Below are positions 39,001 through 42,000 of a stretch of 64,000 bases of DNA, one piece after another. This DNA is from an uncultured Poribacteria bacterium (lineage in GTDB: Bacteria > Poribacteria > WGA-4E > WGA-3G). A program made the position numbers. The stretch spans positions 320,001 through 384,000 of the forward strand of contig OX638351.1 of the NCBI GenBank assembly GCA_951813565.1. Reading direction: 5' to 3'. The first letter of the stretch is position 1; each line of letters starts with the position of its first letter.

Positions 39001-42000
39001 TTGTGAAGATGATAACGGTGTTTTCACGTTGTCCTGTTTCGTTGAGCACTTCCAGAATTCGACCTAACTGATCGTCAATCAGTTTTATCATTGCATAATA
39101 TGCGGCTTTAAGCGTCTTAGCATCCCTTTCACCCACAATCTCAACTTTGGTTTTACTGCGCGGTGATTGCGCTAAGATCGGATTCCGAATGTCCAATTCA
39201 TCTGGTGTTTGGACTTTCGACTGAAAATCAATCTGACGCAACTTGTGCTGCTGTTCTAAATCACTCTCCTTAAAAAGCGGTTCGGGCATATCCGTTGGAT
39301 TAAACTGTTCCCTATATGACTGCGGCGGATTAAACGGTGGATGCGGGTCATAGATATTGACACTCGTAAGCCAAGGTCCGTCCCGTTCTTCGCGAATGAA
39401 TTCAATCGTCTTTTCTGCACACCAAGTCGTTTGGTGTAATTCTGCTGGCACTCCTTCAGGGTTTTTAGTCAACTCACCGAGTATATATCCTTTTGAACGA
39501 ACCCAATCCGCGTAATCGTGACCTTCCTTCCAATCATCTCGTGGTGCATGGCTATATTGCCAATAGCGATAGCCATCGTTGGCACGTGGTTCTATTCGCC
39601 GAAAAGCACTTGCGAGATGTAGTTTTCCAATTAACCCACAATCGTAACCGATGTCTGCAAGTGTGCGCGTTATAAGCGGATATGTCTCTGGAAAATAGTC
39701 GTTGCCGTTACCACTAACATGTGTAGCACTCGGATACATGCCTGTCAAAAAACTTGCACGACTCGGTGTGCATATAGGGCTTTGACAATAAGCGTGTGTA
39801 AATGCTACGCCATCTGCAACCAAACTATCAATGTTTGGTGTAGATACATACGGATTTCCGAGTGCTCCTATCGTGTCGTAACGCTGTTGGTCTGTGCAAA
39901 TCCATAGGATATTCGGAGTTTCAACAGACATCTTTTCTTTCATTTACTTAGCAGTCGCAGTAAATCCTGCAGTTTTAATTACGTCCGCGAGTTCGTCAAC
40001 CTTAACACTGTTTTTCCGAACCTTAATAATTGCTTGGTCGGGTAAAGAAACTTCAGCGCTAATAACGTTTTGGTGCTTTGTAAGTGCATCCTGCACTTTT
40101 GCAACGCAAGCTCCTCACGTCATACCTGTTACTGTTAAAGTTACATCCTCGCTTGCAGTCGTTTCAATTGGCACGGACATGAAGATGTTCAATTGCTTGC
40201 CAGAATTTGCGCCAAATATACGGATTTTTCCGTCGAAACCACCCGTGGCGAGTTGCGTGCCATCGGGGTGAAATGCAAGTGCAAAAACGCCAACGGTGTC
40301 TCCTTGCATAGATAAAAGCCGTTTTCCATCTACTACGTTATAAATTCGTGCTTCCCCTGAAGAACTACCGACAGCAAATTTGCTCCCATCTACTGAAAAC
40401 GCTACCGCATCAATTGAACCCGACTGCGCTTCATAAGCCTTGATGAGATTGAAATCTGTGTTGCCAACGTCCCTACGGGTTTGACGGAACATTCTGTAAA
40501 GTCGCGGAATGCGATCTTCTCCCACGCTCAAAACTTGGTCAGCCTTCGGGTGCCGCGCAATAGCGTTAATTTCTCCGTAACCTTTGTTGCTTGAGTTAAC
40601 ATCATCTACAAACGAACCCGTATCTACTTCAACCAATTTGAGTGCTGTATCACGACTGCAACTGACAAAATGCGAACCGTCAGTAGAAAAAACTGTGCCA
40701 AAAACCCAGTCGCCATGATTGTCAAATCGGACAAGTTCTTTTTCATCTGTGATAGAGATTACGCGCACCGTTTTATCTGAGGTTCCAAAAGCAATACGAC
40801 TGGCATCAGGTGAGAAAGAGAGTCCATAGATCGTATCATAAGTGGAACGAATAGATTTGATAAGTTTATTTGTAGCAGTGTCCCACAACTGAACCTCGCC
40901 AAATTGTGCGGGGGAACCGCCTGCTATACCAAGTATTTTTCCACCATCAGCATATACAATAGATTGAATACGACGCGCTTTTCCAACCAATCGTGCTTTG
41001 AGTGCAAAACTCTTTGAGTCATACAGCAAAACCTCATTGACACCGGACACTGCAAGTGTGCTTCCATCGGGAGAGTAAGCCATAGCAGAAACTACGGGAG
41101 GCACTGTATAACTTGGATATTCTCCGTTTGTTTCGTCTGCTTCTGCAGGTGTATCGTCTTTTGCACCTTCAAGAATCCAACGTGTGAATAGGTTAATTTC
41201 TTCGGCGGTGAGCGGTTCTTGGTTCTGCGGCATTGCAGGCGGGTCACCCGAAATTAGTTCAATAATGAGACTCTCATCCGGTTTGCCAGGGATGATTGCT
41301 TCTCCTGCCATTCCACCTCGCTTGAGTTCAGCATAAGATGTCACTATCAGGTCAGCATTTGGATCACCGGGATGATGGCATCCTTGACAACTCCGTTTGA
41401 GGATCGGGACAATCTGTTTGTGGTAACTCACTGGTTCTTTTTCCCCATGATTGTCTGCCGCTGCAAACGGACTCCACACAACAGAATAGATCAGAAAAAT
41501 CGAGAAAATACATATAAACTTTAATATTGATATTTTCATGCTTGTTGAAAATCCTCTCTCGTTATGGCACGTAATTTTAGTACAATCTACAATGCAATGA
41601 TATTTTAATAGATTTGTAGTAATTATATCACAATTTAATAATAAAATTCAAGAAAACATTAAACATCATTCAGAATCTCGGATTACACGAATTTTGATAA
41701 GTGCTTCTTACAATGTAAGGAGGTGCCATAAATGATACTGTTACAAACGCCACAAATACAGAGAAACGTACAAGTGTTTTAGTTTTATTATTGTTTAACA
41801 TCTTTGTAACATTTGTATCAAGAGTAACGTAATTTTGTTAAACTTGTAATTTTGAAATCTATGACGACAATTTTTTTCGCAATAAGTAGTTTTGGACTTG
41901 CAAAAAGCCCTTAAGCGTTATGGAAATTTATACTTAATAGGGTATGAGAATTCGGAAAAGCACTAAACGGCGAAGACTAATTTCTAACTCTAATCTGCGA

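Follow-up and report, generated by a model that had tools for sequence, protein, structure and literature searches.

An in-frame TGA codon in a cytochrome/WD40 gene of an uncultured Poribacteria bacterium, a sponge symbiont, almost certainly codes for selenocysteine (Sec), as residue 475 at the predicted metal site of a C-terminal heavy-metal-associated (HMA) domain, and the public gene calls almost certainly truncate a conserved, predicted exported haem/propeller protein. We consider it reasonably probable that the product is a Sec-decoded chain of PSCyt1, WD40, and HMA domains encoded in a PVC-type gene cluster, that it is exported, and that it serves as a tethered, haem-linked chaperone or trap for a soft metal. 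The window analyzed here is a stretch of 64,000 nucleotides of contig OX638351.1 (assembly GCA_951813565.1), and its position 1 is contig position 320,001. Coordinates below count along the window, except that those preceded by "C1:" count along the whole contig.

RESULTS

One gene is split by an in-frame TGA

Translation with table 11 splits the locus into a minus-strand open reading frame at 40115-41539, which encodes 474 aa and ends ...TVTGMT before the TGA, and a second one in the same frame at 39944-40096 (minus strand). Reading the TGA as U yields a single 531-residue chain containing ...GMTUGACVAKVQDAL... (Table 1). Among the best 120 database matches, the public proteins end at 446-494 aa, mostly at 474-475 aa, and carry the names "hypothetical" or "WD40 repeat protein." The earlier note had proposed one gene encoding a cytochrome c domain, a propeller, and an HMA domain, in that order, with Sec at the first Cys of the GMTCxxC motif. 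The TGA-as-U translation and its Pfam matches bore out the gene and the domain order, U475 aligns with that Cys in ATP7B domains, and the scores and boundaries given earlier for PSCyt1 and HMA were reproduced to within one residue.

Table 1. Features of the focal gene and its neighbors (window positions)
Feature	Position	Strand	Basis or remark
Whole gene	39944..41539	-	531 codons plus TAA stop at 39944-39946; one TGA read through
Signal-like hydrophobic N-terminal helix, residues 1-28 (...SPFAAA/DN)	41456..41539	-	Sequence; AF2 helix 2-28
PSCyt1 (Planctomycete cytochrome c), residues 51-104	41228..41389	-	Pfam PF07635, 35.3 bits (cut-off 22)
Haem motif C51-Q-G-C-H55	41375-41389	-	CxxCH
Seven-bladed WD40 beta-propeller, residues ~150-455	40175..41092	-	Pfam WD40, 95.3 bits
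HMA domain, residues 467-526, motif G-M-T-U475-G-A-C478	39962..40141	-	Pfam PF00403, 35.6 bits (cut-off 24.8)
In-frame TGA, predicted Sec codon 475	40115..40117	-	First Cys position of GMTCxxC motif
SECIS-type hairpin, A-GUGCA / GGA / UGCAC-U	40083..40097	-	Within HMA helix 1 codons
Arylsulfatase-family gene (CTPSR motif)	38477..39943	-	Pfam Sulfatase, 172.6 bits; starts right at the focal stop (TAA-ATG)
Conserved 272-aa protein	37031..37849	-	Downstream in 73/80 loci; DUF4960 match sub-threshold only
PSCyt2/PSD1 (DUF1549/DUF1553), 829 aa, weak Ig-like matches	34469..36958	-	Pfam, 156.7 and 166.5 bits
DUF1501 protein, 482 aa	32959..34407	-	Pfam, 348.8 bits

Domains and predicted fold

The PSCyt1 match combines an above-threshold score with a conserved CxxCH: all 30 aligned homologues keep CQGCH, M103, and P104 unchanged, and M103 is a candidate for the distal haem ligand. 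This motif would lead one to expect covalently attached haem, as would the signal-like N-terminus and the presence of three cytochrome c assembly genes in the genome. The propeller was modeled by AF2 with pLDDT values mostly of 85-97, and a Foldseek search of the PDB returned WD40 propellers only, the best being 7bie (TM 0.92, target-normalised) followed by other seven-bladed forms, with no analogue of the whole architecture.

The HMA match spans U475. In the AF2 model, strands at 463-471, 492-498, 502-508, and 527-530 alternate with helices at 476-487 and 514-523 in the order beta-alpha-beta-beta-alpha-beta, so that score, fold, and a metal loop preceding helix 1 are all in place. The closest solved sequences are the metal-binding domains of Cu(I)-ATPases, CopZ, and MerP. 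The nearest NCBIfam models all scored below their cut-offs, as noted earlier (CopZ, 37.1 against 91 bits; UxxU_metal_bind, 35.6 against 95; MerP, 31.4 against 92.55).

Conservation of the TGA, and forms without Sec

An earlier comparison had found the TGA in 24 other genomes, and we could extend this considerably, given that the codon is kept in 80 of 80 related loci and that full-length matches in all 99 genomes of family f1 (G000 included) contain exactly one TGA. The broader claim that the UGA is kept in all relatives stood for family f1 and for three genomes of family f4 but not for every homologue: among 115 homologue-bearing Poribacteria genomes, 102 encode a Sec-HMA form, 8 a Cys-HMA form, and 5 a form lacking the HMA domain. 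Past the TGA, the frame runs for 56 codons to a stop in 79 of 81 sequences, and the codon-position entropies of 0.42/0.32/1.12 in this region indicate purifying selection. The 8 Cys forms belong to genus g9 and are 56-57% identical to the focal protein over their full length; their aligned codon is TGT or TGC, their motif reads GM[TS]CGAC, and their reading frame is continuous. A word-based search with residues 415-531 returned one full-length Cys-form cluster (P0124, 574 aa) and otherwise only truncated forms or matches to the WD40 part.

An unrooted gene tree built from 30 homologues agrees with the species families and gathers each state into a single group; the sequences without an HMA domain sit in three places, which implies at least three gains or losses of the domain. 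A single origin of Sec with later replacement by Cys in g9 would be the simpler history, since the hairpin described below is common to f1, f4, and the small lipoproteins. Loss of the Sec machinery in the Cys-form genomes was considered and ruled out, because selB is retained in all 7 that were tested. Sec is thus not obligatory for the function, and the five homologues lacking the domain suggest that HMA is accessory to the core function of the cluster.

A SECIS-type hairpin and the Sec machinery

The GUGCA arm of a hairpin, GUGCA-GGN-UGCAC, begins 18 nt 3' of the UGA. All 69 distinct Sec-HMA sequences have G as its first loop base, and the arms pair in 98.8% of the 414 cells that these sequences provide, compared with 1.9-54.8% in slid controls; at the middle loop position, A, G, and C occur freely (61/11/9). 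Third-position entropy in the hairpin codons +6 to +11 is 0-0.56, so that synonymous sites are frozen, while 35 other codons for conserved residues average 1.20 with a minimum of 0.47. Most of the support for the hairpin is that related sequences do not vary in it, and their relatedness by itself can exaggerate such support. Compensatory change was seen at one pair only, where 3 sequences have G-C in place of A-U and one shows the G-U intermediate, and the fold energy of the single sequence is unexceptional (z = -0.92).

The 5.4-Mb genome contains 5 copies of the core GTGCAG[GT]NTGCAC, 4 of which sit 14-18 nt after an in-frame TGA, in the three Sec-HMA genes and in the gene for a UGSC-family selenoprotein (NF041046, 161.3 bits; cut-off 125). 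The 3' arm is altered in 8 of 8 Cys forms, 2 of which also show GTG changed to GTA, and the 5' arm is broken in a Cys paralogue of the small HMA protein. Bacterial SECIS elements, as outlined in PMC2398784, are stem-loops directly 3' of the UGA with a G in the apical loop; the hairpin is likewise a stem-loop close to the UGA and has the apical G. On this comparative evidence, the hairpin in the codons of HMA helix 1 almost certainly directs the decoding of UGA-475 as Sec. The genome encodes a tRNA-Sec (78.1 bits; called tRNA-SeC with anticodon tca by ARAGORN), selB (344 bits), selA (607 bits), and selD (372 bits), all above cut-off, and selD carries a TGA of its own. The locus has conserved coding flanks, a hairpin, and Cys homologues, and the genome has selA, selB, selC, and selD, as would be expected for a bacterial selenoprotein gene.

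Two small Sec-HMA lipoproteins

Two small proteins with lipoprotein-type N-termini, encoded at C1:4462021-4462455 and C1:4462591-4463007 (minus strand), carry GMTUGNC and GMTUGSC. Their assignment to the same theme as the focal HMA domain was upheld by the Sec motif and by the same hairpin after the UGA. Conservation of their TGA was a point that the earlier note had left aside; among about 150 listed matches to the small HMA protein in 151 Poribacteria genomes (229 further ones exist), a single TGA is present in all but two. The fused HMA domain is 44-54% identical to the HMA domains of these lipoproteins and 23-30% identical to the HMA domain of the copper-type P1B ATPase of the genome, and by sequence we regard it as related to the former.

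Gene neighborhood

Kamneva et al. (2012, PMC3542564) outline a PVC cluster of four genes encoding DUF1501, PPC-like, PSCyt1/Big_2/PSCyt2/PSD1, and PSCyt1/WD40 proteins. The focal gene lies beside PSCyt2/PSD1 and DUF1501 genes on the same strand and shares the N-terminal architecture of the PSCyt1/WD40 protein, and by these features we assign it to that position in the cluster. The cluster protein as described in PMC3542564 has neither an HMA domain nor Sec, and judging from the homologues, the HMA domain is an addition to the PSCyt1/WD40 protein in one order of Poribacteria. The family f1 cluster differs from the published outline (PMC3542564) in that a sulfatase gene is inserted and the PPC-like member is not recognisable. 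The sulfatase gene is on the same strand in 71 of 80 loci, adjoins the focal gene downstream in most, and encodes a protein with no evident signal peptide, which may therefore not share a compartment with the focal protein. A PSCyt2/PSD1 gene occurs within the 4-kb flank in at least 34 of 80 loci and directly follows the focal gene in f4 loci L136 and L137. In the 829-aa protein, the matches to Big-like and Big_2 models are weak, and PSCyt1 gives none.

DISCUSSION

Sec in HMA-like proteins is already known, from NF041115, from NF045683, and from the GOS "MerP" and "cation-transporting ATPase UxxC." We found no PSCyt1/WD40/Sec-HMA fusion in the literature or in curated models; of the earlier proposal of a new selenoprotein architecture, the fusion thus held within the reach of these searches, while Sec in an HMA-type domain had precedents. 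NF041115, the UxxU metal-binding (seleno)protein, resembles the focal domain in being small and HMA-like and in having Sec in the metal motif. The focal domain aligns to positions 3-70 of the 74 in this model, and the alignments of the small lipoproteins cover almost all of it. Against the cut-off of 95 bits, the focal protein scored 35.6 and the small ones 50.4 and 53.2; the motif of the model is UxxU rather than the UxxC with one Sec found here, and the focal domain shares its chain with a cytochrome c and a propeller. NF045683, the "MerT/CopZ fusion-like heavy metal transport selenoprotein," has a CopZ-like (HMA) part that the P0123 lipoprotein matches at positions 152-221, but this match reaches 47.6 bits against a cut-off of 375, and the model has a membrane MerT part and no cytochrome or propeller. 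The GOS proteins place predicted Sec, in the ATPase as UxxC, in heavy-metal handling by marine bacteria; they are represented by 1-2 reads each in a table that gives no architecture, and neither is entered there as a cytochrome/WD40 fusion.

CopZ/Atx1, the Cu(I) P1B-ATPase domains, and MerP share the fold and the GMTCxxC loop with the focal domain but carry Cys in place of Sec, and the family cut-offs are missed: the CopZ models NF033795, NF033794, and NF047957 (cut-offs 85-95) score the focal protein at 35-37 bits and the small ones at 39-53, and MerP (TIGR02052) gives 31.4-52.4 against 92.55. Unlike CopZ and the ATPase domains, which are cytoplasmic, the focal HMA domain is probably exported. 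Neither the word-based search nor a full-library HMMER search with residues 415-531 found a fused form in another phylum, and the HMMER search, swamped by long repetitive WD40 proteins and one HMA-repeat protein, is uninformative on fusions beyond Poribacteria.

Two accounts of the TGA dispense with Sec. The codon could be a true stop, with a complete 474-aa cytochrome/propeller protein before it and, after it, an HMA stretch that is either a small gene of its own or a remnant undergoing decay. This would suit the public gene calls, all of which end there, and the existence of HMA-less homologues. We regard this as very improbable, however, given that the only start available to an independent gene, GTG at 40096, falls within helix 1 and would leave out strand 1 and the metal loop, and given the kept frame and length past the TGA, the purifying selection, the continuous reading of the Cys homologues, and the conserved hairpin shared with the UGSC selenoprotein. 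Read-through without tRNA-Sec, by near-cognate insertion of Trp or Cys or through a local recoding signal, has a general precedent in that stop codons can be read through in bacteria, and nothing specific favors it here. It too would be hard to credit in a genome with complete Sec machinery, at the position of a metal-ligand Cys (a classic Sec/Cys pair), and before a hairpin whose placement and apical G match the bacterial SECIS elements outlined in PMC2398784.

With the UGA read as Sec, the remaining alternatives concern what the U-x-x-C pair does. It could be a redox centre, a selenenylsulfide/selenol-thiol couple for which the HMA fold is a scaffold and whose oxidoreductase step is fed or drained by haem c. 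A haem on the same chain suggests electron transfer, and the AF2 model places Sec at a helix N-terminus, as in the CxxC centres of thioredoxin-fold proteins. UxxC is also the commonest redox-selenoprotein motif in the tables of PMC2398784 and PMC13188914. We think this possible but doubtful, as the domain fits HMA, CopZ, MerP, and Cu-ATPase sequences residue for residue, GMTCxxC included, and fits no redoxin model, and a one-electron haem would pair poorly with a Se-S couple that transfers two electrons. Alternatively, the fused and free Sec-HMA domains might together form a MerP-like layer of the envelope that scavenges mercury or organomercury and has nothing to do with copper. MerP is the textbook periplasmic HMA protein, its models give 31-52 bits on these domains, and the affinity of selenolates for Hg is very high; several predicted Sec proteins have also been tied to Hg handling (10.1101/2022.07.06.499078 and PMC13188914). 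This reading appears quite unlikely to us, given that no MerP score reaches the cut-off, that no MerT and no MerA above cut-off (best 398 against 454.45 bits) were found in the genome, which is 95% complete, and that no mer genes occur in the gene neighborhoods.

We therefore return to the tethered metal-binding protein as the reading that we favor. The protein would be exported and receive its haem in the periplasm, where the HMA domain could act as a metallochaperone or metal trap whose selenolate/thiolate pair binds a soft metal ion, and the propeller may dock partner proteins of the cluster. The haem might exchange electrons with the cytochrome domains of the PSCyt2/PSD1 neighbor and possibly with the bound metal, although any such coupling of haem and metal site is our inference. 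Compared with Cys, Sec could bind the metal more tightly and faster, and the site would escape disulfide trapping in an oxidising compartment. Our best guess for the metal is Cu(I), with Hg(II) or another thiophilic metal as possibilities; we lean toward Cu(I) because the closest solved sequences are Cu(I)-ATPase domains and CopZ and because of the mer gene results given above. HMA sequences do not separate Cu from Hg, Cd, or Zn, and the MerP scores nearly equal those of CopZ. UxxC selenoproteins, for their part, are mostly redox enzymes and not metal binders, an observation that runs against the pair as metal ligands. One could also imagine that the HMA domain is connected with copper-dependent formylglycine formation and, through it, with the adjacent sulfatase, but we make no such claim.

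A more speculative idea, to which we give a rather small chance, is that the Sec/Cys HMA domain offers the first functional handle on the widespread PVC cluster. The cluster would then be redox machinery of the envelope that either requires a soft metal or acts on one. In it, the Poribacteria protein would represent a new kind of haem-to-selenolate metal relay, perhaps a reductase or loader acting on Cu(II)/Cu(I) or Hg(II) in the periplasm, and the free Sec-HMA lipoproteins would supply the metal.

In summary, most public clusters stop early, at 474-475 aa, for a protein conserved across most sponge-associated Poribacteria, and each genome has two small lipoproteins that are truncated or missed as well, so that three of the four HMA domains of the genome are invisible in annotation. 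For selenoprotein biology, the gene provides a well-supported, predicted exported selenoprotein in which Sec probably acts as a metal ligand rather than a redox residue, and sister lineages supply natural controls with Cys or without the domain. Further selenoprotein genes of the Poribacteria can be sought with the compact hairpin GUGCA-G(G/U)N-UGCAC. The DUF1501/PSCyt/PSD1 cluster is among the most expanded uncharacterised gene sets in Planctomycetes-like bacteria, and a metal-binding domain tied to it yields a concrete hypothesis, namely, that the cluster may depend on a metal.

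Reading frame, domains, and predicted structure

The focal gene is interrupted by a TGA at codon 475 that separates two ORFs sharing one frame under translation table 11. Reading the TGA as U yields a single 531-residue chain with the motif GMT-U-GAC. The earlier note had described a single gene, and our rerun of the ORF calls and of the Pfam and NCBIfam searches reproduced that reading and its domain scores to within one residue. PSCyt1 matched residues 51-104 (35.3 bits; cutoff, 22), WD40 reached 95.3 bits among many matches to propeller models, and HMA spanned the TGA at residues 467-526 (35.6 bits; cutoff, 24.8). 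The nearest NCBIfam models stayed under their cutoffs, namely, CopZ (37.1/91), NF041115 "UxxU metal-binding (seleno)protein" (35.6/95), and MerP (31.4/92.55).

An AlphaFold2 model built on an alignment of 30 homologues (mean pLDDT, 83; pTM, 0.70) placed a helix at N-terminal residues 2-28, followed by a small helical domain, a confident propeller at about 150-455, and a beta-alpha-beta-beta-alpha-beta domain at 463-530, with residue 475 immediately ahead of helix 476-487. Confidence was low near 52-61 and 100-106, the expected place of the heme; C51-Q-G-C-H55 and M103-P104 were invariant in the alignment. Foldseek returned only seven-bladed WD40 propellers (best, 7bie; target-normalized TM, 0.92). 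The HMA domain was nearest in sequence to the metal-binding domains of Cu(I) P-type ATPases, followed by CopZ and MerP, and U475 aligned with the first Cys of GMTCxxC in the solved relatives.

Coordinates of the ORFs, genes, and sites discussed (positions without a prefix count along the window; C1 is a contig of this genome unless another is named; L, locus of a relative)
Feature	Location	Strand	Description
ORF upstream of TGA	40115-41539	-	474 aa, ending ...LTVTGMT
Second ORF	down to 39944	-	same frame as the 474-aa ORF
IS1595-type transposase fragment	42167-42436	-	upstream of focal gene
DDE_Tnp_1 transposase	42610-43551	-	upstream of focal gene
STT3-like fragment and WD40 protein	43596-45510	-	N-terminal fragment (275 aa) and separate 335-aa protein
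P0122	C1:4462021-4462455	-	132 aa, U72; lipoprotein-type N terminus (...VFGC), acidic linker, HMA
P0123	C1:4462591-4463007	-	127 aa, U67; lipoprotein-type N terminus (...LMGC), acidic linker, HMA
UGSC gene	C1:3198329-3198853 (L144:329-853)	-	in-frame TGA
Oxidoreductase-type gene	C1:1322712-1323392	+	one in-frame TGA
Tandem HMA ORF	genome G060, C1:39354-39764	-	202 aa, without TGA
ZnuA-like gene	L017:2184-3165	-	periplasmic metal-binding lipoprotein; frame break in assembly
Repeated motif	L092:5317 and L092:6331		...SGMT-TGA-GACVAKVQ...

Conservation of the TGA and its natural replacements

All 80 relatives' loci, which come from metagenome-assembled genomes of Candidatus Poribacteria or uncultured bacteria and are 73-92% identical, carry TGA at the aligned codon, and sponge metagenomes are among the DNA runs containing the stretch. 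Exactly 56 codons separate the TGA from the stop in 79 of 81 sequences. Codon-position entropy 3' of the TGA was 0.42/0.32/1.12; the variation falls mostly on third positions, as expected of a coding sequence under purifying selection. At locus L092, the C-terminal ...SGMT-TGA-GACVAKVQ... stretch occurs twice, 338 codons apart and with an identical flanking peptide, either by local duplication or as an assembly artefact.

We then sampled 151 Poribacteria genomes at E <= 1e-40, inspecting divergent homologues. The TGA had been reported in all relatives examined, which stands for the 80 loci but not for this wider sample. A homologue was present in 115 genomes. In 102 of them, it combines the HMA domain with TGA; family f1 accounts for 99, counting this genome, and family f4 for 3. 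Another 8, all of genus g9 in family f3, encode a full-length protein with Cys (TGT/TGC) at the site (GM[TS]CGAC), and the remaining 5 have a protein that ends directly after the propeller and lacks HMA. No match was found at this threshold in one f1 genome, G072 (95% complete). Exchange of Sec and Cys at a known ligand position is a classical selenoprotein signature. An unrooted gene tree of 30 homologues tracks the species families, with the Sec forms of f1, the Cys forms of g9, and the Sec forms of f4 in one group each; the HMA-less homologues occupy three separate places, thus indicating at least three changes in HMA presence.

Recoding hairpin and Sec machinery

The genome encodes tRNA-Sec (78.1 bits; cutoff, 47; tRNA-SeC with anticodon tca by ARAGORN) with selB adjoining it (344 bits), selA (607 bits), and selD (372 bits), which itself has one TGA. 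Starting 18 nt 3' of the UGA, the focal gene carries GUGCA-GGA-UGCAC, flanked by A and U. The minimum-energy structure includes it as a local hairpin, and the energy of the 76-nt segment is unexceptional (z = -0.92). Its stem codons are nearly frozen across 81 sequences (third-position entropy, 0.10, 0, 0, 0, 0.10, and 0.56). By comparison, 35 other codons that specify a residue at least 90% conserved have a mean of 1.20 and a minimum of 0.47. In the middle of the loop, the base varies freely (A, G, and C in 61, 11, and 9 sequences), altering the amino acid along with it.

Both small HMA genes have the hairpin after the UGA at the same spacing. The 5.4-Mb genome has five copies of the core GTGCAG[GT]NTGCAC, four of them 14-18 nt after an in-frame TGA, in the three HMA genes and in a gene matching NF041046 "UGSC family (seleno)protein" (161.3 bits; cutoff, 125). 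The latter, with GUGCA-GUA-UGCAC 14 nt after its TGA, is an internal positive control from a recognized selenoprotein family.

When 69 distinct Sec-HMA sequences, from fused and free domains alike, were aligned, standard pairs filled 98.8% of 414 cells, against 1.9-54.8% when the partner was slid as a control, and the first loop base was G in every sequence. At the loop-closing pair, three sequences have G-C in place of A-U, one has the intermediate G-U, and two are mismatched; covariation is thin, with compensatory change at this pair alone. The case for a recoding hairpin is based mainly on the freezing of synonymous sites and on the Cys forms as natural controls. All eight Cys forms have GCGCU or GCGAU in place of UGCAC as the 3' arm, two of them additionally change GTG to GTA, and the 5' arm is broken in a Cys paralogue of the small HMA protein (locus L115). 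At the former SECIS position, codons +6 to +11 counted from the Cys codon, an alternative hairpin (AAGUGC, 5-nt loop, GCGCUU) is possible in six of these eight loci (L128-L135) and may be a SECIS remnant. The position and apical G of the hairpin agree with the bacterial SECIS as outlined in the consulted portion of PMC2398784.

Small HMA proteins

The best NCBIfam matches of P0122 and P0123, two small Sec HMA proteins, lie under the cutoffs: NF041115 (50-53 bits), CopZ_AFE_1862 (51-53 bits), and MerP (37-52 bits). A small HMA protein was matched in 141 of 151 genomes. Conservation of its TGA, which had been left open, held in all but two of the approximately 150 matches listed, a count that leaves 229 further matches outside; the two exceptions are tandem HMA domains in a single ORF. 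Of the four HMA domains in this genome, three have TGA; the one with Cys belongs to a copper-type P1B ATPase (TIGR01511; 597.6 bits; cutoff, 397). The fused domain shares 44-54% identity with the lipoprotein HMAs versus 23-30% with the ATPase domain, and thus the fused and lipoprotein domains, which share the SECIS, look like one lineage.

Gene neighborhood

The focal stop is abutted by the start of an arylsulfatase gene, followed on the same strand by genes for a 272-aa protein unassigned to any family, an 829-aa PSCyt2/PSD1 protein, and a DUF1501 protein. Among the 80 loci, 71 have the sulfatase, 73 the 272-aa protein, and at least 34 the PSCyt2/PSD1 protein within the 4-kb flank; in f4 loci, a PSCyt2-type gene directly follows the focal gene. 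A PVC-bacteria cluster is described, in the part of Kamneva et al. 2012 (PMC3542564) consulted, as DUF1501, a PPC-like secreted protein, PSCyt1/Big_2/PSCyt2/PSD1, and PSCyt1/WD40. On that description, the focal gene is the PSCyt1/WD40 member, with the HMA domain as its addition.

Two IS transposase genes directly upstream break, in this window, the upstream synteny seen in other genomes. Past them lie an STT3-like fragment and a separate WD40 protein, only 23-27% identical to the focal propeller. The upstream genes of locus L017 (a TPR protein, a Fic protein, and a ZnuA-like gene on the other strand) gave no clear lead.

Discussion

Our analysis, made at the level of sequence, shows a gene that belongs to the PVC cluster and is predicted to be translated as a single chain, in which Sec occupies the ligand position of the HMA domain, alongside a conserved heme motif and a propeller. 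The genome has three cytochrome c assembly genes. We infer that the protein is exported and receives heme. The HMA domain would act as a tethered soft-metal site of selenolate and thiolate, which the propeller and heme could link to the remaining cluster proteins. The main rival is that U-x-x-C serves as a redox couple. For a metal site, Cu(I) is our first choice, given that the nearest relatives of known structure are Cu(I) binders and that no mer system was found in this genome (MerA, best match 398 bits against a cutoff of 454.45; MerT, no match). HMA sequences discriminate metals poorly, and copper specifically is therefore a tentative, rather doubtful assignment. A separate, weak match to the MerA model (72.7 bits), of the pyridine-nucleotide disulfide oxidoreductase type, may be a further selenoprotein.

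Sec in heavy-metal proteins was predicted earlier: entries of a GOS table include "MerP" and "cation-transporting ATPase UxxC" (PMC2398784), the table of a 2026 review has NF041115 UxxU (PMC13188914), and NCBIfam NF045683 is a MerT/CopZ fusion selenoprotein. The term "WD40" was absent from the review text. Literature on Poribacteria and selenocysteine, judged by title or abstract, did not mention a PSCyt1-WD40-HMA selenoprotein, and no such fusion was described in the literature searched on selenoproteins with HMA/CopZ, PSCyt1/WD40, or DUF1501/DUF1553/DUF1549. Public versions of the protein are truncated and, where named, called "hypothetical" or "WD40 repeat protein." The earlier claim of a new architecture is thus borne out within this literature, and we file the protein as a new architecture and family within the known Sec heavy-metal proteins.

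To this, our study adds the relatives that have Cys or lack the domain, the UGSC gene as a control for the hairpin, and the connection with the PVC cluster. Given that selB is kept in all seven Cys-form genomes tested and that five homologues lack the HMA domain, Sec and the HMA domain itself are adaptations layered on a core function.
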